Source: Candidatus Fermentithermobacillaceae bacterium
Lineage (GTDB): Bacteria; Bacillota; Sulfobacillia; Fermentithermobacillales; DUSS01
Length of the DNA stretch: 64,000 bases
Direction: 5' to 3'
Assembly: GCA_014896535.1 (NCBI GenBank)
Contig: JADBKE010000007.1
Location: forward strand, 68,571-132,570
Shown here: in pieces, positions 28,635-47,665 of the stretch
How positions within the stretch are numbered: position 1 is the stretch's first letter
Layout: each line of letters begins with the position of its first letter
Position numbers and translations under genes: made by a program
Notes under the pieces: generated by a model
What the model was told of the DNA's origin: nothing
What the model saw: only the letters and a program-made list of their open reading frames with translations
Database searches by the model: none

Positions 28635-28661
28635 AGTCCGTCACCTCCCGAAACCTTCTAG

Positions 28662-29547: not shown

Positions 29548-29616
29548 GTTCCCTCCTTATCTTTGAAAACGGTGGCCCGGCGGCGACAGCCTCCTCCGGG
29601 CCACCAGCGTACCTTG

Positions 29617-30570: not shown

Positions 30571-30650
30571 TTGCTCCACCCCTCGTTTGTGGTTTTGTTC
30601 ATTGGGCTGGTGCCCTGAAACTCGGTGACCCAGCGTCGTCAAAACAAGCC

Positions 30651-31409: not shown

Positions 31410-31425
31410 CTCGTTTGTAAGGCAA

Positions 31426-31438
31426 GTATATTATATAC
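31426..31438. promoter_or_regulatory. candidate GntR-type operator (perfect palindrome GTATAT-T-ATATAC)
   Basis: 13-bp GT...AC inverted repeat 17 bp upstream of the GntR start in an AT-rich promoter stretch; half-site ATATAC repeats again at 31441-31446. Confidence 0.4.
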
Positions 31439-31762
31439 AATATACAAGCCACGTCAACGGGGCCGGGTTGACGGTCAAAATCCCACGGCTCTTTACGCAG
31501 AGTCCTCACAGTCTTGCTGTAGCCGACATCAGCGGTGTAATATCCAGTCGAGTTAGGCAGTGAGGAAGGAATCCCGGCTCCACTCTTACCGTGGCTCTTT
31601 CGCTCATTTTGTGACCTGTGGGACGCACGGTCAGCCCGAGAATCTGATTATAGGCACATCGAATTTGACCGGAAAAACGTCCTGGCTTTATGCGGCTAAC
31701 ACGGATTGCAACCGTCGGCGTCCGGCATTTGCCTTTGTGCTTCCGAAAGGAGCGTAGAACCG

Positions 31763-32809
31763 ATGGAATTCACAAAGACCAGCGGCGGTCGTACGGTATC
31801 GCTGTATGTTGGCAGCAGTGAGAACATGATCCACGTCCGCGATGACTCCGTATCGCTCACAGTCACGTCTCCACCATATTGGAACGCAATCGACTATGAT
31901 AGGCACGCCGAAAATCCCGAGCAGTCATACCGCACGCGTCAATACAAGAGCGGGTTTGACGACTACCAATCATACATCACCTGGGCTACGCGGATATTCG
32001 GCGAGGTACTAAAGAAAACCCGGCCCGGTGGTTTTCTGGCCGTAGTTGTTGGCACCGTCCTGTGCGATGGAGTTCTCTACCCGGTACCGTTCGACCTCGT
32101 CTCAAGCCTCACGAGGTCCGGGTGGCTGTTTCACCAAGACATCGTCTGGCATAAAGTCACCGCAGGCGTCAAAAGAGCCGGCGTGTTCATCCAGCATCCG
32201 TATCCGGGTTACTACCACCCCAACATCATGAACGAGTATATCCTCATTTTCAGAAAACCTGGTGCTCCGATTCACCGCACCGTGGCGCCCGAAGTAAAGG
32301 CAAACGCAAAATACCAGATAGATGCGCTTTTTACCAAAGAAATAGCCAACAACGTATGGCACATCGCGCCTGTGCCCCCGGGCACCCTGAATCATCCGTG
32401 CCCGTTCCCCGAAGACATCCCTTTCAGACTGATCCAACTTTACTCGTATCCCGGCGACACGGTTTTGGACCCCTTCCTCGGCTCCGGTCAAACAACGAAG
32501 GTTGCGTGGGCGCTTGGCAGAAGTACCATTGGGTACGACATAGTAGAAGAATATGTCAGGTATGCATTTCAACGTCTTGACGAACCGCTGGCTGTAAGAG
32601 AAAAACAGCTTGTTGCCGAATACAAGCACGCCGACCTCGGTGCTCCTCTTGGAGCGCTCGGAAGAGCGAGGCACGGTAGGACGCGGCACGGCGCGGGGTT
32701 GCGCAGCCGAAAGCGGAATGACGAACCAAAGGAGGGGGACCCAGGTGCCATTCCAGAGGGAAAGAGAAGGATACCTCTCATTAAAGAGAATGATTCAAAC
32801 GGACTCTGA
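31763..32809 (+). CDS. DNA methyltransferase, beta-class N4-cytosine/N6-adenine type (motif IV SPPY before motif I FLGSGQT)
   Basis: TSPPYWNAIDY and DPFLGSGQTTKVA; SD AAAGGAG 7 nt before ATG 31763; no restriction endonuclease gene adjacent. Confidence 0.8.
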   Translation: MEFTKTSGGRTVSLYVGSSENMIHVRDDSVSLTVTSPPYWNAIDYDRHAENPEQSYRTRQYKSGFDDYQSYITWATRIFGEVLKKTRPGGFLAVVVGTVLCDGVLYPVPFDLVSSLTRSGWLFHQDIVWHKVTAGVKRAGVFIQHPYPGYYHPNIMNEYILIFRKPGAPIHRTVAPEVKANAKYQIDALFTKEIANNVWHIAPVPPGTLNHPCPFPEDIPFRLIQLYSYPGDTVLDPFLGSGQTTKVAWALGRSTIGYDIVEEYVRYAFQRLDEPLAVREKQLVAEYKHADLGAPLGALGRARHGRTRHGAGLRSRKRNDEPKEGDPGAIPEGKRRIPLIKENDSNGL

Positions 32810-32841
32810 ACTTCGTGAGAATCTGACAGATTCCGTATTCG

Positions 32842-33478
32842 ATGTACTTTATATCGTTGCCTCGGCTGGCTATAGTCGGTGAACCATCAAGGACTCAGAT
32901 CGCTTCAGCAATCATTGCTTCGCACGTGTTGGTCCACTATCCCAAACTGTTTGGGCACTCTCCCTCCTTGGAGCCGCGAGAAGAAATGCGAAGGGACGCG
33001 GTCAAAGGGGGGCTTTTGATGGGCCCCATGTACCATCTCATTCGGCGAGAGGACAGGATGAAGGCCCTGGGCGAGCTTCGCCGTGTTCTGAAGCCTGGTG
33101 GCGTGGCGGTGGTGGCCTATCCCAATTCCTGGGGAATACTGAGGTCGCTTCTGACAGAGAATCCGACGTACTATGAAAGCAAGGAAAAGATCTTTGCGCT
33201 TACCCGGAAATTCAACAATAGCCGTCCGGGGGAGGTTTCACCGAGGCGTACTTCACAATTCCCTCAAAGGCCACCGCAGAATTGCAGGAAGCAGCCTTCA
33301 CTATCCTGTGCTATGCTGGCGCAGAAAGCTACGCCTCAGGATGCATCGAACCTTTGACCAGAATGAGCCAGGAAAACCCCGGCGCTTACAAGAACGTGCT
33401 CGAGACTGCGGCAGCGCTTTCCGAGGAGCCCCCTGGCGTGATTCCACGGAGCACGTTCATTTTGTTGTGAGGAAATGA
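32842..33478 (+). pseudogene. class I SAM-dependent methyltransferase fragment (5'-truncated, frameshifted)
   Basis: post-motif-I region only (LRRVLKPGGVAVVAY); no GxGxG; C-terminal continuation in another frame (33282-33470). Confidence 0.45.
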
Positions 33479-33515
33479 GATGCACTGAGAAACGCAATCG
33501 GGGGAGGGATCTCCT

Positions 33516-35318
33516 TTGTCTCAGTCCTATATCATCACCGACGTGGGAAGCACCACCACTAAGGCAATACTCGTCGGAGAAAAGAACGGCGAATACAGGC
33601 TCCTCGGACGCGGTGAAGCGCCTACTACGGTCGAGTTGCCTTACGAGGATGTGACTTACGGCGTCATCAACGCTGTCAGGGATCTGGAGGATAGTACTGG
33701 CAGAAAGCTCCTTTGCGAAGAACCTGGCACCAGCTGCCCACTGAAGCATCCAGGTTCCGAAGTCAGGTATCTGTCTACTTCAAGCGCCGGCGGGGGATTG
33801 CAAGTCCTGGTCTTCGGCGTCATGAAGGGCGTAAGCGCGGAGAGCGCAAGTCGCGCGGCCTTAGGTGCGGGAGCCATATTGCTGGACGTGATGGCGGTAG
33901 ATGACGGAAGGCCAACCTTCGCAAGAGTCGACGCTATTCGTAATGCTCGACCAGACATAGTTTTGATTGCGGGTGGGTATGATGGCGGCAACGCGGCCTT
34001 TGCCCTGGAAATATGCGATCTTTTGAACCTTGCAAGGCCAAAACCCAGATTCGGCAAGGGTTTCACAATCCCGGTGGTATACGCCGGAAACAAGGATGCC
34101 GCCCCGCTTGTCCGGGATACCCTGAGCGAAGGCTTCGACCTGAAGGTCGTAGAGAACCTCCGCCCCACTCTGGAGCGGGAAGTTCTGGAGCCTGCCAGGA
34201 CTGCCATCCATGAACTCTTTATGTCTCACGTCATGGCCCATGCTCCGGGCTACGAAAAGCTAAGGTCATGGGTGGATGCTGACATCCTTCCCACCCCGGC
34301 AGCAGTAGGGCGCATGATGGAAGTCCTGGCCTACCGGCATAGGGCCAACCTTCTGGGAGTTGACATCGGAGGAGCAACCACGGATGTCTTCTCCGTCATA
34401 GACGGATCCTTCCACCGTTCCGTCAGCGCCAACCTGGGAATGAGCTATTCGGCAGGTAATGTCCTGATTGAAGCAGGTGTCGAAAACGTGTTACGCTGGC
34501 TTCCCTTTGAAGTTCCCTGGCACCAGGTTGCGGACAGGGTTTTCACCAAGCTGATTAACCCGACCACGGTCCCCAGGACGCTTATGGACCTCCAGATAGA
34601 ACAGGCTCTGGCCACGGAAGCTTTGCGGCTGGCCTTCGTCCAGCACAAAGAGATAGCTTCAAGCCTCCCCGTTCAGATGTCTCCCCTCATGGCCATGTTA
34701 ACCGGCCAGGATGAGCAGGTCAGGGCCAGAACTCGCCGAACCTCTTTGGTAGATATATCTGACGTGGACATTATCGTCGGTTCGGGAGGAGTACTATCCC
34801 ACGCTCCGAAAAGAGCTCAGGCAGCTTTGATGCTCATAAACGCCTTCCAACCGGTAGGAGTCACACACCTTGCAATAGATAGCATCTTCATGATGCCTAA
34901 CCTGGGAGTCCTGTCTCAGCTGGAGCCCGAAATGGCGCTTCATGTTCTCGAAAGAGACTGTTTCGTGCGGTTGGGTCCGGTTGTTGCGCCTGAGGGAGAG
35001 GTAACACCCGGCGAGCCGGCTTTAGCTGTCACGATAAGGCACCACAGCGGCGGACAAGAAGCCATAGTCAACGGAGGAGATATTCACGTTTTCCCTCTCC
35101 GGGCGGGTGATGAGGTGGAAATCGAGGTGGAGGCTCTGGGCGGTCTGTCTATAGGGGGAGGGTCCAGGGCAAAGTTTAAGACGTCCGGCGGGGTCCTGGG
35201 ACTCATAGCAGATTGCCGCGGGAGGCCTTTGAAGTTCCCCAAAGATCCAGGAGAAAGAGCAGCGCTGGTCTCCAAATGGCAACATCAGATCGGTGCATAC
35301 GGGGAGGGGTGTCGGTGA
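33516..35318 (+). CDS. GlmL/MutL-like ASKHA-fold ATPase (glutamate-mutase-reactivase-like family)
   Basis: N-terminal IITDVGSTTTKAIL phosphate-1 motif, DIGGATTD phosphate-2 motif; 600 aa. Family placement (GlmL/MutL, PF13941 with EutA) recalled from memory. Confidence 0.5.
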   Translation: MSQSYIITDVGSTTTKAILVGEKNGEYRLLGRGEAPTTVELPYEDVTYGVINAVRDLEDSTGRKLLCEEPGTSCPLKHPGSEVRYLSTSSAGGGLQVLVFGVMKGVSAESASRAALGAGAILLDVMAVDDGRPTFARVDAIRNARPDIVLIAGGYDGGNAAFALEICDLLNLARPKPRFGKGFTIPVVYAGNKDAAPLVRDTLSEGFDLKVVENLRPTLEREVLEPARTAIHELFMSHVMAHAPGYEKLRSWVDADILPTPAAVGRMMEVLAYRHRANLLGVDIGGATTDVFSVIDGSFHRSVSANLGMSYSAGNVLIEAGVENVLRWLPFEVPWHQVADRVFTKLINPTTVPRTLMDLQIEQALATEALRLAFVQHKEIASSLPVQMSPLMAMLTGQDEQVRARTRRTSLVDISDVDIIVGSGGVLSHAPKRAQAALMLINAFQPVGVTHLAIDSIFMMPNLGVLSQLEPEMALHVLERDCFVRLGPVVAPEGEVTPGEPALAVTIRHHSGGQEAIVNGGDIHVFPLRAGDEVEIEVEALGGLSIGGGSRAKFKTSGGVLGLIADCRGRPLKFPKDPGERAALVSKWQHQIGAYGEGCR

Positions 35319-36394
35319 AAAGGACCGAGATACGTAAGACTCGAGCGGTTCCTCCTACCGCCAGGTTGCTCGTATCGGTAGGTGACCGGGTTAATCCGGA
35401 TACTCCCATAGCTCGCGTCGAAACCATTCCCGGCAAGCTCTGGCGGGTTAATGTCAGCCGGGCTCTGGGCATCGATGCCGGCGACATCCGGCCCTTCGTA
35501 CTGAAAAGCCCGGGTCAGACCGTGGTCCAAGGCGAAGTGATCGCCGCGGCGTGCGATTATTTTGAGCCTCGCTCGGTAACTGCACCGGTTTCGGGCGTCA
35601 TGGCTCTCGTTTCCAAGCACCTTGGAAACGTCTATATCAGAGAGACCGTTGAGCTCGGAGAAGCCACAGGCCCGGTAACGGTGGAAGTCAGCAACAGGTT
35701 GGGAGTGCACCCCCGTCAGGTGAAAGATTTCCTCAACCGTGGCGTGGAGGCCGGGCGTTTTGTGATGAAAGGAGAGATCCTTGCGTCAATCCAGTGGGGA
35801 CCGAAGCCGCGTACCGTGGAGTCGCCTATCTTTGGGAAGATCAGAGAGATATCTCTTAAGACCGGAACGATCACCATTGAGCCAGCATTCAAATCTCTAG
35901 AGATCGACGCTTACCTCGAAGGCACCGTCACACGCATCGGCCCGGAGGAAGTCGAGATCACCGGGGTCGCCACTTTGCTGAACGGTGTGTGGGGGCTCGG
36001 AGGCGAAGCCCATGGGGTCCTTCACGTTATGGAAGGGGACCTCGAGGTCCGGGATTCCTTACCGAAAGGAGCTGTAGTCGTGGCTTCCGGAACTGCCAGC
36101 TACGAAGCGCTTGACCTGTGCAGGGAGAGGGGAGTCGCAGGTGTGATCCTTGGTTATCTCGGGTCGGAAACGCTCCTGAGATTTGCAGGTCCGGAGCTGA
36201 ATATGGGCATAACCGGAGGCGAAAATGTTCCTTTCCCGGTCATCCTGATGGAGGGATTTCTCCCCGCGGACATGAAACCCGAGACTTTCGAAACCTTCGC
36301 CGAGTTTCATGGCACCACAGTATCGTTGAATGGCACGACACACATACGGGCAGGAGTCATCCGACCCGAGATTATCCTGTTTGGAAAGCCATGA
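35315..36394 (+). CDS. hypothetical protein (no recognised family)
   Basis: GTG start overlapping the upstream stop (GTGA) with SD GGGGAGGGG; 359 aa. Confidence 0.5.
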   Translation: MKRTEIRKTRAVPPTARLLVSVGDRVNPDTPIARVETIPGKLWRVNVSRALGIDAGDIRPFVLKSPGQTVVQGEVIAAACDYFEPRSVTAPVSGVMALVSKHLGNVYIRETVELGEATGPVTVEVSNRLGVHPRQVKDFLNRGVEAGRFVMKGEILASIQWGPKPRTVESPIFGKIREISLKTGTITIEPAFKSLEIDAYLEGTVTRIGPEEVEITGVATLLNGVWGLGGEAHGVLHVMEGDLEVRDSLPKGAVVVASGTASYEALDLCRERGVAGVILGYLGSETLLRFAGPELNMGITGGENVPFPVILMEGFLPADMKPETFETFAEFHGTTVSLNGTTHIRAGVIRPEIILFGKP

Positions 36395-36418
36395 CCAGAG
36401 TATGGGAGTGACGGGCTG

Positions 36419-37651
36419 ATGAAAGACTTCAGTTTGAGCTCGGTTGGCTCGGGAGAAATTGGATCGCTAAAGGACTCTGGCCCGACGGCGGAGGACTGGT
36501 TCCTCTGCGTGAACTTCTACAGCGCGGGCGATATCATTGAGACTTACGGGGCCTGGCCGTACCATGTCTTGACTCCAAGGATCTTGGCCGATTTGTATAA
36601 TATGCCCTCCAGCACGCCGCTTGAGCAAGAACCGGCGGCTCGATCTTTTTTCAAAGTGCTGGAAGGCAGGATAGCTCCTGCTTTCCCCTTCCTTGGTGAA
36701 GAGGAAGGCAGCACATTGGAAAGCTTTTTTGCCAATCACCGGAGAGAGGTTTACCCGCCTGTCAAAGACCTTTTCTTAAGGCTGGCCGGCATCGAGAGTC
36801 CCGCTCCTCGGGAAGCTTCGCATGGAACGGGTGGGCTTTCCGACAAAGTGCTTCTTATATTCCAGCACCTCCTCATCTTGCGCCTCCGAGAAGAAGAAAG
36901 GAAGGCCGGCCTCTGGGAAAAAAGGACTCCTGCTCAAAAGAAAGGAACGCTGTTCGCGCTCAACCCCAGTAGCCGCACGACCTTTACCAGGATCAAAGCT
37001 CTTCCCGTGGGCAGGGACACGAGGCTTGCTTTCCCATGGGGCGGAATCTACAAAGCCTATGGAAAACTCTTGCCCCTGATGGAGAATAGGTACACTAAAT
37101 TCATCTTTTCTACGGCAGATGAGAATCTCCGCATGCTAATAGATGGTCACGTACTTAAACCGTTGGTCCTCTCGGGGCTCATGAAGCTCGAAGGTGACAT
37201 CGCGAATATGCAGAAGGGCGCGTATCTCATTCCCAACGTCCCTTCCGTATCTTGGGGCGAGATTGAAGGTCTGATGGAAGAAATCTCGATGGCTGCGCGG
37301 GATGTAGCACGAAAGACTCGCCCCCTCATACCGGACCTAGTGGATCTGTGGAGGTCTTCAAGGTATTCGTACCTCGATGGGCATGGTGATTTCGTTGAAA
37401 TGGCCTATACCGTCCTTTTGGGGCTTCTCATCTTTTGGGCAAACCAAGATGGAATTCTTCCCGACCCACCCGAGTTCAGCCTTGCTGGAAATTACGCAGC
37501 TGTGAAACGAACGTTTTGGGAGATTCTTTGCGGCAGGTACCCGCCTCTGCCGGGGATCGTTGTGCTCAAGGGCGCGAAAAGGGCGTGGGATTGGATCTTG
37601 AAACAGGCGGAAGGCGAAAACGTAACGGTCCGGGCCGTAGCGGTCCCTTAG
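36419..37651 (+). CDS. hypothetical protein (no recognised family)
   Basis: 410-aa ORF 25 nt downstream of the previous gene. Confidence 0.5.
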   Translation: MKDFSLSSVGSGEIGSLKDSGPTAEDWFLCVNFYSAGDIIETYGAWPYHVLTPRILADLYNMPSSTPLEQEPAARSFFKVLEGRIAPAFPFLGEEEGSTLESFFANHRREVYPPVKDLFLRLAGIESPAPREASHGTGGLSDKVLLIFQHLLILRLREEERKAGLWEKRTPAQKKGTLFALNPSSRTTFTRIKALPVGRDTRLAFPWGGIYKAYGKLLPLMENRYTKFIFSTADENLRMLIDGHVLKPLVLSGLMKLEGDIANMQKGAYLIPNVPSVSWGEIEGLMEEISMAARDVARKTRPLIPDLVDLWRSSRYSYLDGHGDFVEMAYTVLLGLLIFWANQDGILPDPPEFSLAGNYAAVKRTFWEILCGRYPPLPGIVVLKGAKRAWDWILKQAEGENVTVRAVAVP

Positions 37652-37657
37652 GGTGCC

Positions 37658-38364
37658 TTAGTAAGGAAACTGCTCGACCGCGCTGCGTATGCCACCTAAG
37701 AAAGCACGTAAAATCACGGCATCTTGAGGCCGACAGTGAGAAACTAGTAGGCCCGCGGAACTCCGCATGATGGTGCCCCAGGCCCGCGCAGCACCCGCCA
37801 GTCTGGACGCCCAAGACTGACCAGACAGCCGGGATTCGTCAATACATCTTCGCGTAGTACTTTGTATCATGGGGTGCCAGGAGAACCGTTTCTGCGACAT
37901 GCTGATGCTCGAACGCATCATCTGGACCCACTTGTCGCGCCTATCGTAATAACTCGGTAGGACCCCGCCGAAAGGCACCTTATACAGCGACTCCAAATCG
38001 TGCGCCTCTGAACCCTCGACGCCGTCCCCGAATTGCCAGCCGTTCACCCCGTGAACACAGGCTTCCGGCCACCACCCGTCGAGGATGCTCAGGTTTAACA
38101 CACCGTTCATAGCAGCTTTCATACCTGAGGTGCCGCAGGCCTCGAGAGGACGCCCGGGGGTTATTGAGCCAAACATCCGAACCCCTGGTCATGAGCCGGC
38201 CGATTTTCATGTCGTAGTTCTCGAGGAAGACCACGCTCTTTGGGATACTTCGGGGCGTAGCGAACCAGATTTGCAACTAGCTCCTTGCCCGTATCGTCCT
38301 GCGGGTGCGCCTTTCCGGAAAAGAACATCTGAATACGCCCGTCTTCCGGGTAAGGTTCAATCAC
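37658..38364 (-). pseudogene. glgP: alpha-glucan (glycogen) phosphorylase C-terminal remnant, >=2 frameshifts
   Basis: three consecutive minus-frame pieces: QMFFSGKAHPQDDTGKELV.. / VVFLENYDMKIGRLMTRGSDVWLNNP.. / ..EACGTSGMKAAMNGVLNLSILDGWW..; N-terminal ~500 aa absent. Confidence 0.6.
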
Positions 38365-38437
38365 CTCCGACCCCGTATGTCAACGGCGACTCTCACGCCC
38401 GTGTCCCCCGGTTGCCGAAAAGCAGAACCCGTCAACT

Positions 38438-38686
38438 GGGTGCCGCTTCTCAGTGCCCGGCGATGAGAGCGGCGGTGCTCAATTCCGGTAGCCAGCATTA
38501 TCACCGCCGCCTCGCCGGCTCATTTGGGAGTCACGGTCCCTTAGTCGCCCTCGGTTTCGGAAGCGTTTATTTCCCGAGCGTCCTCATATTCTCCGCTGTC
38601 CTGTGCAAGCACCGTTCCGTTAATCGACTCATTTTGGAATTCCATTAAACCTCAGTTAGAAGCAGATTAAACCTGAGCTTAAGGAT
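38438..38686. repeat. diverged copy A of PepSY-3'end / response-regulator-promoter junction (PepSY body deleted)
   Basis: ~85-100% identity to 45556-45729 plus 46344-46403; identical cores tatttcccgagcgtcctcatattctccgctgtcctgtgc and actcattttggaattccattaaacctcagttagaagcagattaaac. Confidence 0.6.
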
Positions 38687-38691
38687 CGGCT

Positions 38692-39054
38692 ATGGCGAGA
38701 ATCCAAGCTATGACCGGTCCCGAACAGGCGCACGGCGACTATAACCATGTAGATCTTGACGACCCGGAGTTAATAGGGTCGGCGGATGACGGCAGGATAT
38801 TAGTGCAAATCGCCGCTCCGGACGGGCGGGTATTGAACGCTTCAGGGACTTTGAGAGGCACCCTCCTGCCCCCAGGATACGTTGGTCCCCCAGTGCTGTC
38901 AGAAGTGAATGGACAACCAATGATCATCGCAGGAGAACGACTGGCCGGCGGGGCGCTGGTTCAGGTGGCCCGACCCGTGGGAAGGGAGAGAGCGTTTCTC
39001 AGGATGCTGGCCGGGGTTATTTCATACTCGTCCCGCTTCTGTTCGCTTGACTGA
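38692..39054 (+). pseudogene. decayed response-regulator receiver-like ORF (paralog of the fragment at 46447)
   Basis: begins right after repeat copy A; HGDYNHVDLDDPE / DGRILVQIAAPDG weakly parallel to NHEGYHVEIARDG / DLVLLD..PG of OmpR-type receivers; acidic pocket lost. Confidence 0.3.
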
Positions 39055-39340
39055 TAGACGCATATGCCCTTGATAGCCTCGGCCTGGAAAACGGGGTGCT
39101 GCTCCTCGAGAAAAACAAGGTCCAGCCTCAGAGGTTTGAAGAGCTCTTCCAACTCGTTGTAAAGTCTCGCGTAAAAGGAAGGACGCTCTGAGGGTCCGGG
39201 AAGAGGACCGTCGGTTACCACGCCCACGTCGATATCGCTCAGGGGGTCATCCTCCACCACTTTTTCCCCAGCGAGGATCTTAACCCCCGTGCAGGCGCGG
39301 GAACCGAACAGGTATACCAGCGAGAACCCCAGTCTGTATG
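38961..39340 (-). pseudogene. MNT-type nucleotidyltransferase (HEPN/MNT antitoxin-like), N-terminally truncated, no HEPN partner
   Basis: ...LVYLFGSRACTGVKILAGEKVVEDDPLSDIDVGVV (GS-x-DxD motif); frame bounded by a TGA only 10 codons upstream of the GS motif with no start codon. Confidence 0.5.
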
Positions 39341-39523
39341 CGCATCACAAGAGTGACCCGCAAAGTATGGCTGCCCGACAAGTACGGAAGCGTACCGCCG
39401 TATGTAGTTGACACCAACTTTCTCGTAAACGAGGACAGCCGGACCATAGGTAAGCTCTACGGTTGGTTGTCCGAGGAGCGCGCCCCCAAGCAGATAGTTA
39501 CCAGGGCTGCTCGGTTGTGCAGG

Positions 39524-41554
39524 TTAAGCGCCCTCAGTTTGAACGCTTACCGGTGAACCGTACTCGGTTCGGGCAGTTAGCGGTGGACCATGTCCTGTTC
39601 CGGCAGTCGCCGGCGAAGCAGTCTCCAGCTCGAGTAATTCCACGTCTTTTCTGAGATCACGTAGGTCCCAGCGCCGCTTCTGGTACACCGTGAACGCGCA
39701 GTTGTCCCAGTACCGAGATTCCTGAAGATCTCCTTGCTGTTCAAGGAGCTTCGAAAGCCACAGAGCAGCGCAGGCGGAGTCCCGTTCATCGCCGCTCTTA
39801 CGGAAATAATCAAAAGCCTGCCTTGCGCAGGAAATGGCTTGCCTCAGTTTGTTTTGCTGCTTGAAAATGGATGACCGGGTCAAACGAATCCAGCCGATTT
39901 CGTTATGGTTCCTTTCATTGAGGATCTGCTCAGCCTTCCTGAGCAAGGTCTCAGCTTCTTCCAGTTCACCCATTCTAGCATAGATCTTGGCGAGCTCCAC
40001 CTGGGTGTAGGCTATATTAGGATGGGCTGGGTTGTCGACATATGGACCCGCGCCCTTCTCGATGTGCTCCTTGGCTTCTTGTAACCGGCCCTCGCGGTAA
40101 AGGATCATCCCCAGGTTATTATGGGCAGCAGCCCGGTGAGCTTCTGTGGCATGTTCGTCCTGCAAAACACTGAGGAACCTCTGTTTAGCTGCAACCCACT
40201 TACGTTTTCGAAGATGGATGATTCCCGTAAGTAGCTCGTAATTGCACCGCAAGAATCCGATCCTGGGGTCTGCCGAATCTTGCCCCGAGAACCAATCCTC
40301 CAGTTTGGCACACTGTTGCTCGGCAGCATCCAGTCTTGTCAGTTCGATCAAACATGAGATGCTTGAGCAAAGGAGAGCCCCGTAGGTGTATGATCGTGCT
40401 AAGTGTTGTTCCTTAAGGCCCTGACGGTACCAGCGAAGAGCACCTACTGGATCTCTATCGAAGAATGCGTGTCCCATCCGAAGGCACACTTCGGCAGTCA
40501 AATCGGCAGTCAGATCGGATAGCCGGTCCTCGGTGGCGCAGCTCAGGGCAAGCGACCCGAGGGCTCTGGCGGCATCGCCCTCACCTGCCAATACCATACA
40601 GCGTGCGGCCTCACACAGGAGAATCGCCTCCTCACGACGGTTCTCGATCATACGACGGAGCAGAGCGGCTCTATGCCATGCATCTGCTGCATCAGTGAAC
40701 AAGCCGTCCTTCTCGAATAGCCGGGCAGCATGCTCAAATCGAAACGATGCTTGGTCTATGAGGCCCGCACGGAGGAGGCACCGGGCCAGCCTTAGTTGAA
40801 AAAATGGGCCCGAATCTGGATACATCTCCATGGCCCTGGCAAGGGTTAGGTACATTGCTTTAATCTTGTCTTGAGTGTAGACACAACTCAATGGGAACTG
40901 AGGAGCGGCTGCGCTCAGGTTTACGCGATATCCGTCGGTGCTTTCCGCTAGAGTGATCAGGCCCCGAGCTTGAAGATTTGAGGCTAGCTCGATAAACGCT
41001 TGCTCCGTAAGGTTCGCTGTGGCAAGCACCCACTCGCTTCTCGCGTGCGGGCCAGCAATGTGGCACACTGCAAGAAGTCTCTTTTCGGGTTCCTCCAGGG
41101 CAACTGTATCCGCGATCACCATCGAACTGTGGGATTGGAGTTCCTTGATAACAGTAGCCAGGAAGTTCCGCACTGTGCGCGCTTCCGCATCGTTCAGCAT
41201 GCCTGTTGTTAGGTAAAAAGGTGCCCTAAAATCGTGGCCGCGAATTAGGTCCAGAAAAGTATCGATAACTTGACGAAGTCTCATGCGGTCCCGATCTTGC
41301 AGTGAGGGCTGCGTCCGATCGGTTTCCCACGTAGATAACTCGGGCAGTTCTTCAGAGTACAGCACAGACAACGGGACCCCCAGAAACGAGGCGATCCGAT
41401 CCTTCATGTCGTCGCTAAGCCCTTTGGCCCCGTTCAGTACCAGTGAAAGATGCGAAGCGGAAATCTGCGTTCCTTTGGCCAGGTCCTTCAGTCGAAGGCC
41501 TCTCATCTCGAGGAATGCTTTCACGTTACGGGAAAAGAGCGCTTGTGACGGCAT
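39524..41554 (-). CDS. HTH-XRE / TPR transcriptional regulator (RNPP/PlcR-Rap-NprR-like architecture, 676 aa)
   Basis: N-terminal HTH_XRE (LRLKDLAKGTQISASHLSLVLNGAKGLSDDMKDRIASFLGV), then ~550 aa of TPR-like helical repeats; SD AGGAGG 8 nt before ATG. Confidence 0.75.
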   Translation of the reverse strand: MPSQALFSRNVKAFLEMRGLRLKDLAKGTQISASHLSLVLNGAKGLSDDMKDRIASFLGVPLSVLYSEELPELSTWETDRTQPSLQDRDRMRLRQVIDTFLDLIRGHDFRAPFYLTTGMLNDAEARTVRNFLATVIKELQSHSSMVIADTVALEEPEKRLLAVCHIAGPHARSEWVLATANLTEQAFIELASNLQARGLITLAESTDGYRVNLSAAAPQFPLSCVYTQDKIKAMYLTLARAMEMYPDSGPFFQLRLARCLLRAGLIDQASFRFEHAARLFEKDGLFTDAADAWHRAALLRRMIENRREEAILLCEAARCMVLAGEGDAARALGSLALSCATEDRLSDLTADLTAEVCLRMGHAFFDRDPVGALRWYRQGLKEQHLARSYTYGALLCSSISCLIELTRLDAAEQQCAKLEDWFSGQDSADPRIGFLRCNYELLTGIIHLRKRKWVAAKQRFLSVLQDEHATEAHRAAAHNNLGMILYREGRLQEAKEHIEKGAGPYVDNPAHPNIAYTQVELAKIYARMGELEEAETLLRKAEQILNERNHNEIGWIRLTRSSIFKQQNKLRQAISCARQAFDYFRKSGDERDSACAALWLSKLLEQQGDLQESRYWDNCAFTVYQKRRWDLRDLRKDVELLELETASPATAGTGHGPPLTARTEYGSPVSVQTEGA

Positions 41555-41620
41555 GAGTGATTCCTCCTGGAAAAGGCCTGTTCGTCTTCCGTACGCTACG
41601 CTTACATTTGCGGTACCTGC

Positions 41621-41878
41621 TCAGCTTCTACGATCCTGGTTCCCCCGATCGACGGGTGTAGGGCATCCCCTCCAATAGGGGGCTTCGGAGGCATCTGCGG
41701 ACCGTGGCGGACAACGTGGGGGGGGGTTCTCCCTACTGCCGATATCGATTAGGAGTCCAGATGGGCACGACCAGACCGTGTCCGTACCCGAAAAGGCAGA
41801 CCATCCCACGAACCAGAAGACCGTCAGCCACACCACTAAAGTCATAAAGAAGGATTTTGTAGTACGACTTAGCCTCAC
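41621..41878 (-). CDS. small secreted/membrane protein (85 aa) upstream of and co-oriented with the RNPP-like regulator
   Basis: GTG start with strong SD GGGGAGGTG (7-nt spacer). N-terminal hydrophobic segment MTLVVWLTVFWFVGWSAFSG, then a polar tail with 3 Cys (..WSCPSG..PPPRCPP..WRGCP..). Confidence 0.45.
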   Translation of the reverse strand: MRLSRTTKSFFMTLVVWLTVFWFVGWSAFSGTDTVWSCPSGLLIDIGSRENPPPRCPPRSADASEAPYWRGCPTPVDRGNQDRRS

Positions 41879-42282
41879 ATCTGGCCACCTCCCCTGTTAT
41901 CTGTTCTTTAACCGCCCATTGCTTTCCTTCTCAGGAAAGTAGGATACTGGAGCATAGCGCAGGAGAGATACCTCTACCTTGCTTGTTTGCCGTAAGAATA
42001 GTTTTTGACGGCGAACATATACATGGCGCAGCCGTATCAACGGTCCCAGTGCTCGGGAATTTGCCGGTAAGCGACTCGGACCTCGGACACACGTGCCAGG
42101 GAGTTCATCCAATATCCCGCGTTTTACCCCCGGTGAACCACATGAAACGTGGAAGCACCAAGCAGCTTGATCCAGGCCGACTAGCCTTGTACTGTCTGAA
42201 TTGGGGACTTCATCTGGAGTTGCCGCATGCTGAAAGGAGGGCTTCGCACGAAACCAGGCTAGACTCGAAGGAGGTGAGAAAT

Positions 42283-43494
42283 GTGTTCAAAGTGGAAAAG
42301 GTGAGTCTCCCAGCTTCCACGGGTCTGATCCGCCTACTCGCTGACGGAAAATGGTGCGGCTCGGGGTGTGGCGACGGTTGCGGCAGGGGGTGCGGATTGG
42401 AATGCTACAACTGATGGAAGCATCTGGCAGACTCCCTGAATTCATCGCGCAGCGTGGCAACGCGACTTTCGATGACGCCTGAATCGGCGGTAGCTATAGC
42501 TCGAGCCTGTGTTGAGAAAATAGGAGGGCCCGACTTCTACATGTTTTTCGGCGGCGAACCCACCATGAACATTGCAGCAATCAACCGGGTATTTGACGCG
42601 CTCGGCGGAGACAACGCTCCACAGTTGTTTGGAATTGTGACTAATGGCACCTTTTCGCGGAAGGAAATTCAGCACCTTCTCGAAACCCACAAGATGACCC
42701 TGACATTCAGCATCGATGGTCCCCAGGACATACACGACTTTCTGAGACCCTACAGCGATGGGCGCGGCTCGTTCAATACCGTCCTAGATAACTTACGGTG
42801 GGCTCAGCAGTTCACTAGAGTAGGCGTTGAAGCTACTTTCACACCAGATCATATAAAACGTGGGTACTCTCTTGTAGACCTGATCGAGTTCTTTCATAGC
42901 ATCGGGATAGACGGGCCTCATATCGTGCCAGTAGCACCCAGGAATGGTTACCGCGGGTTCGAGCCCGATATCCTAATACGCGAGTACAAACAAGCTATTG
43001 ACTATTGTCTACAGTCATTTGTCGAGGGCCGTCCCCGCTGGTACACGCTCCTAGTGAACATTCTCGGCGCTTTTGCCGACGGTCGCAAGCGCGAGTACCT
43101 TTGTCCTGCAGGTGTTTCGACCCTCTGCGTCGATTCCAATGGAGACCTTCATCCGTGCTTTATGTTTGTGGGTGCAGCGGAATTCCTGCTAGGGAACATT
43201 TTCCATCTCGACAAATCCGATTTTGAAAAACGAAGAGACACCTTTATCCGGGCCGCACGCAAGTCCAACCGCAGTAATTGCAGTTCTTGCTGGGCCTCTA
43301 ACATATGCGGCGGCTGTATGGGAAGTGCTTTCTGGGCGACCGGGTGCCTTACAGACAATGACCCCGCATGGTGTGAGCTCCAGAGGCAGACCATTGCGTA
43401 CGCTGCACAGAGGCTTTCCAAACTCCACAGCGATCAAGCAGCCTGGCAATGTTTCGTGGACACACTCACAAAGGCAACAAACGACGTCGAATGA
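42283..43494 (+). pseudogene. radical SAM/SPASM maturase, SCIFF-maturase paralog, with in-frame TGA at the third Cys codon of CX3CX2C (42412-42414)
   Basis: track ORFs 41983..42414 and 42454..43494 share one frame separated only by that TGA. Strong SD GAAGGAGGTGA 8 nt before GTG 42283, and no SD before 42454. Joined N-terminus STGLIRLLADGKWCGSGCGDGCGRGCGLECYN[TGA]WKHL..SMTPE..FFGGEP aligns with the SCIFF maturase N-terminal region (CNLRCRYC...KMSPE...FFGGEP); C-terminal SPASM region also parallels SCIFF maturase (C.AGV..GDL.PC..F.G..EF....CxSCWA..CGGGC). Confidence 0.7.
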
Positions 43495-43515
43495 GAACGG
43501 GAGGTAGTGATTCCT

Positions 43516-45162
43516 ATGATCGCTAATTTTGCATGGATGTTCCCTTTGATGCGCAGATATCGTGTACTGACGGCTGTGGTGATAGGGATAGGGGTATTTC
43601 ACTGTGTGGCGCGTATGGGCTATCCCTGGGCTCAGAAGGTCTTCATAGACTCGGTAATCATGCCGAAACGAGCCGACTTGCTACCCGCAGCAGCAGCCCT
43701 GTTTGTCGCGACTGCAGTACTTGAGATCGGGGCAATGCTTCTCAATACATACATCTCGACCCTTTACTCGCAGAAGATATTGCTCTCGCTCAGAGAGGAG
43801 ATATACGGGAAGTACCGGGCCAGTAGTTACGTAACGCAAACCCGAGTTGAGCCTGGTAAGGTAGTATCACTGATGCTATCGGACGCCTCATCTGTGAGCG
43901 AGACTTTTAATGAGGTTATTCCCGAGCTGGCTGGTACGCTTGGAACATTAATCGTATACACGGCGGTGCTAGTTGCCCTGAATTACCGCCTTTTCCTGAT
44001 AGCACTGCTATTCCTACCCATTTATCTGCTCGGCCCAAGGCGATTCTCCCCGGTCCTGTACGGCCGCGGCCAGCAGGTACAGTCTGCGATAGAGGGTCTG
44101 AACTCGGTTCTCCAAGACGATTTAGCCAGGACCACTGACGTGTACGCAGTGGGGGCCAGAAACTGGTCGGTGGCACGTGTCCTTCAAGCCGCAAAGCAGG
44201 TGATGTCCGCGGTCAAGAAGCAAGCAATAGCTCTCCAGTTGCTGGGTTCATCAGTATTCGGTTCACTCATCATCTCCCAGGTCACCCTGCTCGTGGTTGG
44301 CGGCTACTTCGTGATCAACGGTACGATGCAGCTCGGACTCCTTCTTGCTTACGTGTCTTACACATCAGGGTTCTTCAATGCCTGCAAAGAGGTTTTCAGG
44401 GTGTCCGCAAGTCTTGCTGGACCTAAGGCGGCTTGGGACCGGATAACCGAGTTTTTGAAGACACTAGATCCAATCCCTAGTGAAGGTGAGCCGGCGGAGT
44501 TGACCGTACCGTCAGTGCTCCTCGAGGGCATCACTTTTGGGTACCAGCCGGACTCGCCTGTTATCCATGAGGTAAGCTTATCCGCTGACAGAGGTTCTAC
44601 ACTTTGTATTGTGGGTGCGAGTGGTTCAGGTAAAAGCACCGTTCTCCAGATAATCGCCGGATTCTTAAAGCCGTGGCGAGGAGTGTGCAGGGTGTTTGGG
44701 CACGAGACTTCCGGACTACATCCCGACGAACTCAGAGGCGCGGTGTCGTATGTGGTGCCGAATCCCCGAATGTTCCACGCCAGTCTGAAGGAGAACATCC
44801 TTCTCGGCAGAGAAGTCCGTCCTGAAGGTCTCGCCGCGGCCTGTGAAGTATCCGGAGTGAACGAGTTCGTAAAGGAACTGCCCGACGGTCTTGATACTGT
44901 GCTTGGGGACAAAGGTTACGGGCTGAGTTTGGGTCAACAGCAGCGAGTGGGTCTGGCGAGGGCTCTGGTTGGCAGGCCGAAGATTCTCGTTCTAGATGAA
45001 GCACTCTCGGGTGTGCATCCGCCGTTAGCAAGCCAGATCCTGACGCGCCTCAAAGAGTTCCAGCGGGATGGCATAATCATCCTCGCGACACACCGGGCGG
45101 ATACTATAGCCCACGCAGATCGAGTCGTTAACCTGGAGAATGGGAGATGCGTTGGGCCGTAA
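43516..45162 (+). CDS. ABC transporter, fused permease/ATP-binding protein (peptide-exporter type)
   Basis: 6-TM N-domain; Walker A GASGSGKST, signature LSLGQQQR, Walker B ILVLDEA; start set at ATG 43516 (SD GGGAGG). Confidence 0.8.
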   Translation: MIANFAWMFPLMRRYRVLTAVVIGIGVFHCVARMGYPWAQKVFIDSVIMPKRADLLPAAAALFVATAVLEIGAMLLNTYISTLYSQKILLSLREEIYGKYRASSYVTQTRVEPGKVVSLMLSDASSVSETFNEVIPELAGTLGTLIVYTAVLVALNYRLFLIALLFLPIYLLGPRRFSPVLYGRGQQVQSAIEGLNSVLQDDLARTTDVYAVGARNWSVARVLQAAKQVMSAVKKQAIALQLLGSSVFGSLIISQVTLLVVGGYFVINGTMQLGLLLAYVSYTSGFFNACKEVFRVSASLAGPKAAWDRITEFLKTLDPIPSEGEPAELTVPSVLLEGITFGYQPDSPVIHEVSLSADRGSTLCIVGASGSGKSTVLQIIAGFLKPWRGVCRVFGHETSGLHPDELRGAVSYVVPNPRMFHASLKENILLGREVRPEGLAAACEVSGVNEFVKELPDGLDTVLGDKGYGLSLGQQQRVGLARALVGRPKILVLDEALSGVHPPLASQILTRLKEFQRDGIIILATHRADTIAHADRVVNLENGRCVGP

Positions 45163-45555
45163 CACTTGAGGTCTGTCTGAGGTAAGGCGCGCCGAGTCCC
45201 CGTAGGTGTTAGGGAACCGGAAGCGCCTTAGCTTTCCGCCGACCAGCTCTGTACCCTCGCAGTAGCCCTGATACGCGTCAAAAGCAACGTAGTGCACTGG
45301 ATCACCCCTGCGAACCCTGGGGGCACGGACGGAGTTGTGCGACATCCACCTATCCGGGCTCGTGCCCACCGGGCGGGTCGTTGGGGACAGCTTCTTCGTG
45401 TCACGAAAAGTTATCTCAATCCGAGACAAGGTGCTCGTGCATCTACCCTATCGTTGTTCCTTTTTCAACCTCGGCCTGTACGGCAGAAGTAACCACTTTC
45501 GCAGCAACCTTGGCAGCATGCCCGGAAATAATGGTCGAGCGGCACCTGCTTACGA

Positions 45556-45729
45556 GGTGCCGCTTTTCACTAGCTGGCGGTGAGGGCCGCGATCCTCTGT
45601 CGTGGCATCCAGCATTACCACCGCCGGGTCATTTGGGAGACGGTCGTCTAATCGCCTTCAGTTTCGGAACCGCCTATTTCCCGAGCGTCCTCATATTCTC
45701 CGCTGTCCTGTGCGAGCACCGTTCCGTTA
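45556..45729. repeat. diverged copy B (part 1) of PepSY-3'end junction
   Basis: homologous to 38438-38622; here continuous with the intact PepSY gene. Confidence 0.6.
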
Positions 45730-46169
45730 CCCGCATCAACCTTGACGTCCACGGTCCCCGTCGACGTCTTTATTTCGACGCTGTATACCACGTTACCGTT
45801 TTCATTATCGAGAGAAACCTTGACGACCTGTCCCGGCACCGCCTTCAGGGCGCTCGCAGTAGCTTGTTCGGGGGTGATTTTCGCCAGTTGCTGCAAGGAC
45901 CTGCTTTCGGTCGCTTCGTCGTCCTGATTATCGTCTTCTGCGGTATCCTGCGGGTTCGGCACGCGGATAGAGGCTGTGTACGACGGGTTTTGGGCTTCAT
46001 GCTGTCCCTGTGCTGGAGCAGCGTTTTGGGTTGCCGGTTGCGTAACCCCTGCTGCCTGGCCTACCCCATTTGCCGCCTTTGCCGTCTGAGCGTTGTACAC
46101 GCCCAGACCGGCGAGTCCCCCAAGTGTCAGCATCCCCAAGACCAAGCAGGCTATCAGTTTCTTGCTCAT
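45648..46169 (-). CDS. secreted PepSY-domain protein
   Basis: signal peptide (MSKKLIACLVLGMLTLGGLAGLGVYNA), low-complexity linker, C-terminal PepSY fold (..VVYSVEIKTSTGTVDVKVDAGNGTVL..). Confidence 0.7.
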   Translation of the reverse strand: MSKKLIACLVLGMLTLGGLAGLGVYNAQTAKAANGVGQAAGVTQPATQNAAPAQGQHEAQNPSYTASIRVPNPQDTAEDDNQDDEATESRSLQQLAKITPEQATASALKAVPGQVVKVSLDNENGNVVYSVEIKTSTGTVDVKVDAGNGTVLAQDSGEYEDAREIGGSETEGD

Positions 46170-46343
46170 TTGAAGTACCTCCTGTCAACTGCGGTTAGGC
46201 TGGAATTCTTCTGATTGACTTATCCCTGTTCGCCAACATCAACCGTCTCTTGACACTTCATCTCCGGTACAGAGCTAGTCACCCCCTTCGCGCTGGGTTT
46301 CGAGAAGCCACAGCCGTTTCCGGCTCAGTAGGCAATCTACTCG

Positions 46344-46403
46344 ACTCATTTTGGAATTCCATTAAACCTCAGTTAGAAGCAGATTAAACTTGAGCTTAAG
46401 GAT
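46344..46403. repeat. diverged copy B (part 2): PepSY upstream / response-regulator promoter segment
   Basis: 59/60 identity to 38627-38686. Confidence 0.6.
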
Positions 46404-46446: not shown

Positions 46447-46575
46447 ATGGAAACAAACGCCAAGCCTCGCATTCTCGTGGTTGAAGATGAGGCCAGCCTG
46501 GCCCGTTTCCTTCAACTGGAACTGAATCACGAGGGTTACCATGTAGAGATAGCCCGAGACGGATGTGAAGCTCAC
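46447..46575 (+). pseudogene. OmpR-family response regulator, N-terminal ~42 codons only
   Basis: METNAKPRILVVEDEASLARFLQLELNHEGYHVEIARDGCEA then loss of receiver similarity; the convergent TPR gene begins at 46592. Confidence 0.5.
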
Positions 46576-46591
46576 AACCGAAGAGCTCAGA

Positions 46592-47665
46592 CTAACTCCC
46601 CTCTACAGCCCTGCGCGCCCACGCAAGGGCTTCGGCTATGTCTTTGTAGGGAACGCGATGAGCCCTGTCGTCGGGGTTTCTCAGGATCATGGCTTTCTGG
46701 AACTCTTCCATTGCCAGTAGGACATCACCCTGACTGCGCGCCCAGACGCCCATCCAGTAATGAGCGTCAGGGTTTCTCGGAGCAGACTTGAGGGCTTTTT
46801 GAAAATGAAATCCGGCCTGCTTATGTTCCGCCTGGGCCATGTAAACGGCGCCCAGTCCGATGTGGGCCTCGGCTAGAGTCGGAAGGTCTTCGAGAACCTT
46901 TTGATAGGCGGACGCAGCGGCCTCAAGTTCCCCCTTGGCCGCGAGGACTTCCCCCAGGGCCATCGAAGCTAGGGGGCCGTCACTTGTGAGCTCCTGACAC
47001 CGGATGGCTTCCGCTAGAGCTTCTTCGTGACGACCAAGCCGGGACAAAATTCTGGCGAGGAGGTAGTGCGCGTGCGGGTCCGAAGGCGTTCTTTTGAGAC
47101 CCTCTTCGAGAAGTCTCGCCGACTCAGGAAGATCGCCCTCTCCCCAGGCGAGGCTTGCCAGTGCCATGTACGCTGCTTCGGTAGCTTTTCCGGTATCCAC
47201 CGCCCTCCTGTAGCGGAGGTTAGCTTTGTCGTAGTCGTGCCATAGCCACCTGTCGAGGAAACCGGCGTGTTCGAGAAGGATTTCGCGCCAGATGAACCAT
47301 CCCAACAATACCCAGACGAAAAGGGCCAGGAGAACGAACCTTCCGTCAAGGCCTTTCCATATGTAAGCAGCCCAACCTCCGAGCACAATGATGAGAAAAC
47401 CGGCATTCCACGGATGCCTCCACGAAAATCTGACGGGCTCTCGCAAGAAACGTACACCCCCCAAAGCCTTGGCAGCTGTTCCCGATGGCCCCGGTGGCAA
47501 AGGGCACCTGTACCCCGAGGCGCATATCCCGCAAAGAAGGATTCCCCGGATCACCTTGCTTGCTTCACATTTTGAGGCCTCTGCGGATGAAACCGCGCGG
47601 AAGACCTTTCGGGCGGCAACAGACTCAGGTCCAGCCGGCGTACACCGAACGGGCACCTCGCTCAT
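46592..47665 (-). CDS. TPR-repeat membrane protein
   Basis: two N-terminal TM helices then >=6 TPR repeats (..AHYLLARILSRLGRHEEALAEAIR..). Confidence 0.55.
   Translation of the reverse strand: MSEVPVRCTPAGPESVAARKVFRAVSSAEASKCEASKVIRGILLCGICASGYRCPLPPGPSGTAAKALGGVRFLREPVRFSWRHPWNAGFLIIVLGGWAAYIWKGLDGRFVLLALFVWVLLGWFIWREILLEHAGFLDRWLWHDYDKANLRYRRAVDTGKATEAAYMALASLAWGEGDLPESARLLEEGLKRTPSDPHAHYLLARILSRLGRHEEALAEAIRCQELTSDGPLASMALGEVLAAKGELEAAASAYQKVLEDLPTLAEAHIGLGAVYMAQAEHKQAGFHFQKALKSAPRNPDAHYWMGVWARSQGDVLLAMEEFQKAMILRNPDDRAHRVPYKDIAEALAWARRAVEGS

Follow-up and report, generated by a model that had tools for sequence, protein, structure and literature searches.

How did a small biosynthetic gene cluster come to lie between two incomplete copies of one and the same locus? 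The question is raised by a 64,000-nt stretch of DNA (the window) from Candidatus Fermentithermobacillaceae bacterium (assembly GCA_014896535.1, contig JADBKE010000007.1, positions 68,571 to 132,570 of the forward strand). Here a cassette of the ribosomally synthesized and post-translationally modified peptide (RiPP) type is bracketed by repeated parts of a locus in which a PepSY gene is divergent from an operon encoding an OmpR-type response regulator (RR) and a histidine kinase (HK). An earlier note on this DNA took the repeats to be diverged paralogues, and the geometry to reflect insertion or recombination at the PepSY locus. We consider it probable that the arrangement arose by homology-anchored insertion of the cassette with duplication of native DNA, followed by decay through deletion, i.e. 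that it is a recombination scar.

Two copies of the PepSY locus and an allele switch

Comparison of the region 37.5-47.5 kb with itself finds two direct-repeat pieces at the places given in the earlier note. Piece 1 (38421-38644 against 45538-45751) is 74.6% identical with gaps (E=2e-40), and its core (38513-38622 against 45622-45729) is 88% identical; piece 2 (38621-38686 against 46338-46403) matches at 64/66 positions (E=2e-21). There is no further copy of either piece in the window. In the right copy the pieces are separated by 608 bp, comprising PepSY codons 1-147 and 168 bp of intergenic DNA, while in the left copy they abut at 38621-38624 via a 2-nt TA overlap. The body of PepSY is absent from the left copy, as had been claimed; the tail that it retains is 26 codons (148-173, plus the stop) rather than about 30.

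The locus was compared with three syntenic relatives of the family Fermentithermobacillaceae (L007, L009 and L010), found by a scan anchored on a TPR protein and by look-ups of PepSY homologues. An intact homologous locus is found in GCA_012840505.1 (L001/L002, Candidatus Fermentithermobacillaceae), with PepSY, a divergent OmpR-type RR and an HK with HAMP, HisKA and HATPase domains. The right copy is made up as follows.

45534-45674, minus strand: last 8 PepSY codons, stop and terminator flank of L007/L010 type, apparently imported; 139/141 identical to L007
45648-46169, minus strand: intact PepSY gene of 173 aa, apparently a hybrid with codons 1-165 native and 166-173 imported; Pfam PepSY, 6e-15
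46338-46403, plus strand: putative RR-HK promoter/operator, followed by a conserved TCTAATCT and the leader
46447-46573, plus strand: RR stub, receiver-domain codons 1-42; 77% amino acid identity to residues 1-53 of the L001 RR

The left copy, with the fragments that adjoin it, comprises the following.

37823-38366, minus strand: native glgP (alpha-glucan phosphorylase) pseudogene, codons ~372-545; 88% nucleotide identity to the intact 545-aa glgP of L007 and L009
38361-38406, minus strand: glgP scrap, codons ~96-110, encoding DTGVRVAVDIRGRR where L007 glgP has KDTGVRVSVDIRGRK
38418-38540, minus strand: PepSY 3′ flank of native type; identity only 69-71% (indels present) with either the right copy or L007/L010, and 63.5% with L001
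38541-38622, minus strand: orphan PepSY 3′ end, codons 148-173 and stop, of which codons 166-173 are apparently the displaced native allele (…EINASETEGD, then stop)
38621-38686, plus strand: putative RR-HK promoter/operator with direct ATTAAAC boxes, cut at TAAGGAT just ahead of the conserved TCTAAT
38680-39018, plus strand: HK sensor-domain fragment, codons ~43-155; 79.7% nucleotide and 70% amino acid identity to the L001 HK
39019-39329, minus strand: fragment of an MntA-type nucleotidyltransferase antitoxin, codons ~12-115 of 143; 94.5% nucleotide identity to the intact MntA of L009, Pfam Polbeta

The identity between the copies is bimodal. Over PepSY codons 148-165 (38568-38622) there is 1 mismatch in 55 nt, and over the operator (38624-38686) 1 in 63 nt, plus one base at the joint. 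By contrast, there are 7 mismatches in the 27 nt of the last 8 PepSY codons (38541-38567), and the terminator flank is only ~71% identical with 11 gapped positions, giving ~70% with indels for 38418-38567 as a whole. Summed, this is 3/121 mismatches against 40/140 (Fisher p=2e-9). A diverged paralogous duplication is expected to show roughly uniform divergence, and these adjacent segments do not. The 85-100% identity stated earlier therefore holds for the near-identical blocks but not for 38418-38567; the pattern is a sharp mosaic.

A second switch occurs within the right copy when it is compared with the relatives. Its identity to L007 is 262/311 (84%) over 45985-45675, rising to 139/141 (98.6%) over 45674-45534 (Fisher p=7e-7), and this tail and flank are 99% identical to L010. 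Both switches, i.e. left against right and right against L007/L010, share a single 6-nt interval at 45675-45680. The allele switch supports recombination inside PepSY, and with it the suggestion that the geometry reflects recombination at this locus. The parsimonious reading is that the right copy is a recombinant, with a native 5′ part and a tail, terminator and whole cassette of L007/L010 type, because one recombinant explains both switches while any alternative needs two coincident crossovers. On the same reading the left copy would keep the native PepSY tail and native terminator, displaced by the insert, and the divergence between the two copies would stem entirely from the imported tract in the right one.

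In the right copy the PepSY gene is intact, as stated in the earlier note, and its product is 100% identical to P0001, a protein from a 'Firmicutes bacterium' metagenome-assembled genome (MAG) at NCBI. It is divergent from the RR, with the intergenic operator conserved, and the segment 45489-46573 runs colinear with the L001 locus from the PepSY flank across PepSY itself and the intergenic region into the RR, of which it covers codons 1-42. The RR was correctly described as truncated: nucleotide homology to L001 stops at 46573 after codon 42, the Pfam Response_reg match is weak and covers residues 9-44 only, and the stub lies directly against the TPR gene (46592-47665, minus strand), with homology ending 18 nt short of that gene's 3′ end.

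The left open reading frame (ORF) at 38692-39054 had been called a decayed response regulator. It matches instead codons 46-156 of the sensor HK of the intact PepSY/RR/HK locus. The fragment that contains it lacks TM1, HAMP, HisKA and ATPase domains; it has no stop codon and a dN/dS of 0.30 against L001. It has no Pfam or NCBIfam match of its own, and a protein search with it returned only its own ORF on a Logan contig. A metagenome scan for the native-type kinase found only a 60%-identical locus (L013), and no intact native-type locus. No complete RR (receiver and Trans_reg_C) or complete HK (HAMP, HisKA, HATPase_c) of the PepSY-locus type is present in the window, nor any further fragment of such an RR or HK. 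The two-component system is dead here: with RR codons 1-42 and HK codons ~43-155 as all that remains, it can have no signalling function.

The joints of the left copy have little or no microhomology: TA between PepSY tail and operator, TAAGGAT between operator and HK codon ~43, TGA between the glgP scrap and glgP codon ~372, and an overlap of ~0-1 nt where HK codon ~155 meets MntA codon ~115 at 39018/39019. Reading along the minus strand, the native terminator is followed by 11 nt and then by glgP codons ~96-110; the glgP pseudogene has three frameshifts on three-frame translation. The left copy would thus be debris, a chain of native scraps (glgP, PepSY tail, operator and HK) joined at microhomologies of 0-7 nt. 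The PepSY-RR-HK module is intact in L001, L008 and L013, and the left fragments keep the order and orientation of HK, RR, operator and PepSY in those loci, so that successive deletions from a once complete second copy would be the simplest account. The decay appears to be recent, because the HK fragment has no stop codons and a low dN/dS, and what remains of glgP has kept 88% identity to its orthologues. We also considered whether a single locus had been split, each copy holding one of two complementary halves; this was rejected because the copies overlap in the PepSY tail and operator.

Within the intergenic region between PepSY and RR, conservation across L001, L003 and L008 is highest in the 66-nt operator piece, which has the consensus TGGAATTCCATTAAA…ATTAAACTTGA…TAAGGATTYTCTAATCT. 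It may hold RR boxes and the promoter of the RR-HK operon.

We note that the ~90 nt from the PepSY stop to the terminator (45534-45647 and 38418-38540, both minus strand, and L001 10550-10672) comprise a long hairpin and then a terminator hairpin, two hairpins being predicted in the left flank also. The segment is 82% identical between the L001 and L010 types, with a few compensatory pairs, and has no Rfam match; a scan of 37.5-47.8 kb against Rfam gave zero matches.

The cassette and its counterparts in relatives

From the MntA fragment rightwards the cassette contains the following features.

39338-39480, plus strand: diverged glgP-like scrap, codons ~107-152; 75% identical to L007 glgP, inverted, and also present at L010 18578-18705
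39524-41554, minus strand: RNPP-like regulator with HTH(XRE) and TPR, 676 aa, apparently intact; Pfam HTH_3 and TPR
42283-42414, plus strand: Cys-rich precursor peptide gene, 43 aa, the sole survivor; GTG start, AAGGAGG Shine-Dalgarno sequence, MFKVEKVSLP leader and CGSGCGDGCGRGCGLECYN core
42454-43494, plus strand: radical-SAM/SPASM maturase remnant without its first ~105 codons; the Pfam Radical_SAM match begins at profile position 27
43507-45162, plus strand: ABC exporter, fused permease and ATPase, 551 aa, apparently intact; Pfam ABC_membrane and ABC_tran, equal in length to that of L010 with ~98% nucleotide identity

The interval between the TPR gene and glgP in the three relatives has the following contents.

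L009: 59-bp scrap of an ABC gene, MntA-HepT, intact glgP
L010: truncated PepSY, flank, ABC exporter, intact 446-aa radical-SAM maturase, three Cys-rich precursor genes, RNPP-like regulator, diverged glgP scrap, broken MntA, glgP upstream region, intact glgP
L007: as L010, minus L010 11472-19119

L007 is 99% identical to L010 and hence conspecific with it. From ~45500 down to 39298 the window is ~97-100% identical to L010 in each full 250-nt bin (~98.5% overall), and homology continues to 39142. The three relatives share with the window the side comprising ffh…trmD…lepB…ylqF, SLH and TPR genes at 80-89% nucleotide identity. The insert is therefore nearer to another lineage than is the core: ~98.5% to L010 against 80-89% for TPR, SLH and ylqF-ffh. 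The k-mer analysis proposed in the earlier note agrees in finding the cassette unusual, since no other 6.6-kb stretch of the window is as atypical by tetranucleotide distance (0.0166 against 0.0111±0.0020). Its GC content is 54.6% against 57.8%.

Neither L007, L009 nor L010 has a second copy of PepSY, operator or HK at the syntenic site; at most there is one PepSY remnant. The earlier note had reasoned that relatives with the same architecture and intact genes throughout would mean ancient paralogy, and no such architecture is seen in these three. Because the relatives lack it, the rearrangement appears to be recent and lineage-specific rather than a matter of ancient paralogy.

The radical-SAM maturase of the window lacks the CxxxCxxC motif, while its intact 446-aa homologue in L010 has CNMRCRYC; SPASM is present in both. 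The enzyme in the window does not therefore combine a functional radical-SAM motif with SPASM. Relative to L010, 1,055 bp are deleted (L010 14537-15592) with the junction at 42468/42469, removing the N-terminus of the maturase together with two of three precursor genes. The surviving precursor gene starts at a GTG 7-8 nt past AAGGAGG and is in the same frame as the truncated maturase ORF, so that it could be mistaken for the maturase N-terminus. The precursors have a common MF(K/R)VEKVSLP leader and CxxxC-rich cores. Interpretation of the Cys-rich C-terminus ahead of the maturase ORF as a decayed radical-SAM motif was rejected; it belongs to a genuine precursor gene, of which L010 has three upstream of its intact maturase. 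Judged by its sequence, the RiPP cluster is dead in the window genome and intact in L010. The cassette in the window carries the 1,055-bp deletion, and therefore no product is to be predicted from this genome.

The cassette resembles PapB-type ranthipeptide or SCIFF-like clusters in having a SPASM radical-SAM maturase, several short Cys-rich precursors with a common leader, and an ABC exporter. It differs in being paired with the 676-aa HTH and TPR regulator, and the best NCBIfam match of the L010 maturase, rSAM_PapB, scores 183.8 bits, far below the cut-off of 340; in the window the motif and two precursor genes have also been lost. The regulator is 98% identical to the L010 protein and belongs to a tiny family, with one cluster at 98% and then relatives at 44% and 34-36%.

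As the earlier note had stated, the nucleotidyltransferase gene in the cassette is truncated, to MntA codons ~12-115. No adjacent pair of intact MntA and HepT (i.e. a type VII toxin-antitoxin system) is present in the window, and there is no HepT; the L009 proteins score 57.1 bits (MntA) and 81.2 bits (HepT), where the NCBIfam cut-off is 60 bits. The diverged glgP scrap travels with the cassette in both the window and L010, and the cassette therefore once adjoined a different glgP. The ~330 bp from the ABC stop to the end of homology with the L001 PepSY flank (45162-45489) are overlapped by a minus-strand ORF of 134 aa (45025-45429).

L007 was considered as a pristine empty site and rejected as such. 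L001 shares ~60 nt past the L007 breakpoint with L010 and the window, so that L007 is a deletion variant; the 56 bp between TPR and the truncated PepSY in L007 match nothing. The ABC-gene scrap of L009 (10871-10929, between TPR and MntA) is 80% identical to window 44776-44718, and the L009 lineage probably carried the cassette once and then lost it.

The interval between TPR and glgP is thus a variable spot. Its TPR-side edge falls within ~5 nt in three lineages with different neighbours (window 46565-46600, L007 ~9905-9930 and L009 ~10860-10880), a coincidence that could come from selection on the TPR terminator or from a recombination hotspot. On the other side, synteny with any relative was not found to the left of window 37823. 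Since synteny ends there, at the 3′ end of glgP, the locus has a further point of rearrangement at its left border. The adjacent segment at 31706-37651 (an N6/N4 DNA methylase, a 171-aa ORF and a MutL-like PF13941 three-gene block) has no counterpart in the relatives, and a genome scan with the 410-aa protein at 36419-37651 found no match.

Origin of the bracketed arrangement

The reading that we prefer begins with a YkoI-like PepSY gene divergent from an OmpR-type RR-HK operon, lying between TPR and glgP. Into this ancestral locus would have entered ~6.7 kb of DNA from the L007/L010 lineage, or common to it, carrying the last 8 PepSY codons with the terminator flank, the ABC exporter, the SPASM radical-SAM maturase, the Cys-rich precursor genes, the RNPP-like regulator, the glgP scrap and the broken MntA. 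One end would have recombined homologously within the PepSY 3′ end, its sole homologous anchor, with the crossover at 45675-45680. The far end, inside the broken MntA, would have been linked by an illegitimate joint to HK codon ~155 in another copy of the native locus, the simplest candidate being that on the sister chromosome. As the HK joint is 'upstream' of the anchor, the insertion would come to be flanked by a tandem duplication of ~2 kb of native DNA, which requires two chromosome copies, and the native PepSY tail and terminator would be pushed to the far side of the insert.

Later deletions at microhomologies of 0-7 nt may then have pared away redundant, functionless material. From the left copy these would have taken the RR with HK codons 1-42, and the body of PepSY; from the right copy, RR codons 43 to the end with the HK; and elsewhere most of glgP and the 1,055 bp of the cassette. 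The allele mosaic, the identity of each fragment, the sequences of the joints and the lack of this arrangement in the relatives are shown directly; the direction of transfer, the order of the deletions and the unity of import and duplication are inferred. A single event of import and duplication would fit the divergence between left and right (~2%), which equals that of the cassette from L010 (~1.5%). A Campbell-type integration of an L010-type circle was considered and rejected, since the left codons 148-165 are of native type (1 difference from the right copy, 5 from L007).

Several points weigh against this reading. The stretches available for the native-type comparison are short (55 and 63 nt), and L007 and L010 have lost the operator and HK, so that for these parts on the left a native origin is deduced from 98% agreement with the right copy. 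The flank taken as native is unexpectedly far from all others, at 63-71%, while the flanks of L001 and L010 type are 82% identical; the left tail could thus have a more remote origin. Within ~2% of sequence divergence, no fewer than five deletions and three frameshifts are needed. A simple linear one-ended integration yields no duplication, and either two chromosome copies or a separate duplication step is needed. Lastly, the linkage across exact repeats of 39 and 49 nt rests on the MAG assembler.

Separation of duplication and import would give the same mosaic. A tandem duplication from HK codon 155 to MntA codon 115 might have occurred with the cassette already resident, a later homologous import of L010-like DNA overwriting everything in the right copy between PepSY codon 165 and the far end of the cassette, and the second cassette being deleted. 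The ABC scrap in L009 and the cassette in L010 suggest that the cassette is old at this locus in the family, and homologous replacement is far commoner than illegitimate joining (PMC5361080). Yet an extra independent event is needed, a second cassette of ~7 kb must have vanished without leaving a scrap between 38407 and 38417, and the similar size of the left/right divergence (about 2/118) and that between the cassette and L010 fits one event. We regard this sequence of events as possible, if unlikely.

Two direct copies of PepSY/two-component material indeed bracket the cassette, in agreement with the earlier note, but the part of its claim which made them pre-existing, diverged paralogous loci is not supported. 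If two such loci had pre-existed and had either received the cassette as an insert or captured it through recombination with each other, it would be natural that the left tail and flank are as distant from the right copy as is the L001 locus; the mostly synonymous differences in the tail and the dN/dS of the HK fragment also point to long evolution under selection. Old paralogues would not show ~98% identity in every native part of the right copy unless gene conversion had been confined to just those parts, and where the right copy diverges it is 99% identical to the allele of another lineage. With no second copy in L007, L009 or L010, and no other such RR or HK in the window, we think an origin from old paralogues improbable.

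The source is a metagenome-assembled genome, and the bracket would be unreal if the contig mixed two co-occurring strains or misordered short exact repeats. Two contigs of an independent assembly (Logan, SRR24392716) match 27658-38597 and 38643-45704 at 100%. Both end within, and break exactly at, the exact repeats. The PepSY tail/operator joint at 38621-38624 falls in the gap between them and is not confirmed by them; if the 39-nt and 49-nt repeats were traversed by the other route, the PepSY body would change places between the copies. Against this, the novel junctions are unique sequences that a k-mer assembler could not invent. One of the two Logan contigs, L011, carries the operator/HK and HK/MntA joints and links the left operator and HK via the cassette to the right PepSY tail, and the other, L012, carries the joint of native flank and glgP. 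Repeats of 39-49 nt are resolvable by 150-nt reads, and the swapped path would still have two copies and the same allele mosaic. An artefact of assembly is thus very improbable.

That the cassette is a mobile element (a transposon, integrative element or integron cassette), with the repeats as its termini or target duplication, is highly improbable. In its favour is the 44%-identical cassette among transposase and integrase genes in GCA_012840505.1. Against it, no transposase, integrase or recombinase domain is found in the sizeable ORFs of 37.6-47.7 kb, and a search for terminal inverted repeats gave none. The repeats consist of ~250 nt of host genes, unlike target duplications of 2-14 bp, and L010 has the cassette without the second repeat.

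That distant cassette (L014, DULV01000009.1 4189-11917) comprises an RNPP-like regulator, several ORFs of 45-63 aa, a 463-aa radical-SAM protein, an ABC exporter and an extra ABC/FtsX pair. Its neighbours on the flanks are transposase genes (ISL3, DUF772 and rve) and a phage-type integrase.

Relation to known systems and significance

In Bacillus subtilis the ykoGHIJ module comprises the OmpR-family regulator YkoG, the kinase YkoH and the PepSY proteins YkoI and YkoJ, and JGI labels the PepSY homologues 'YkoI'. The loci L001, L008 and L013 are of this type, with PepSY, a divergent promoter, RR and HK, and a conserved intergenic operator of direct repeats. The window differs in that only PepSY is intact, the RR being a 42-codon stub and the HK a 113-codon sensor fragment.

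The insertion that we propose resembles homology-facilitated illegitimate recombination (HFIR; de Vries & Wackernagel 2002 and Prudhomme et al. 2002, both cited in PMC5361080). It also resembles the 'displacement' model that accounts for orphan 3′ ends at the effector loci of Rhs, contact-dependent inhibition (CDI) and type VI secretion systems (T6SS) (PMC5361080). In all of these a conserved stretch of a resident gene is the single homologous anchor, and the far end of the foreign DNA is joined with little or no microhomology. In the window one border lies within homologous sequence with an allele switch (84% to 99% identity to L007/L010 at 45675-45680), while the other is illegitimate with an overlap of ~0-1 nt (39018/39019). 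An ancestral 3′ end likewise persists downstream as an orphan with a stub of the conserved region. However, the anchor in the window is a PepSY tail and not a toxin core, and the cargo is a RiPP cassette. The orphan also comes with duplicated pieces of operator and HK, which indicates a ~2-kb duplication and not mere displacement, by a mechanism deduced here from sequence only.

Tandem duplications (merodiploids) triggered by transformation in Streptococcus pneumoniae (Johnston et al. 2013, PMC3784515) provide a parallel for the duplication. There a donor fragment bridges two sister chromosomes, producing a tandem duplication with donor sequence at the novel joint. These duplications differ in that both ends pair with repeated insertion sequences (IS) and in extending over 100-900 kb; in the window one end would be illegitimate, and the duplication of ~2 kb has since decayed.

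A more general role for this interval is a suggestion that we hold to be doubtful. The PepSY tail and terminator beside TPR might be a recurrent recombination anchor, and the TPR-glgP interval of the Fermentithermobacillaceae a cassette-exchange hotspot for quorum-regulated RiPP clusters and toxin-antitoxin pairs, gathering orphan gene ends as Rhs/CDI/T6SS loci do. Pointing this way are four lineages with four contents, TPR-side edges within ~5 nt, and scraps of earlier tenants (ABC in L009, glgP in the cassette).

The arrangement is a recombination scar of a known kind, the result of ordinary horizontal acquisition and decay, and leaves the current understanding of recombination unchanged. 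For analysis of similar loci, what looks like a diverged repeat can arise where an allelic recombination boundary falls across a duplication that is otherwise near-identical, so that average identity misleads. For annotation, the left 'response regulator' is a kinase scrap, and the intact version of the RiPP cluster is that of L010. For the biology of these organisms, the locus provides a natural example, resolved to the base pair, of a biosynthetic cassette moving between lineages of uncultured thermophilic Firmicutes, in which homology would be needed at only one end and the event leaves behind a duplicated, displaced gene tail.

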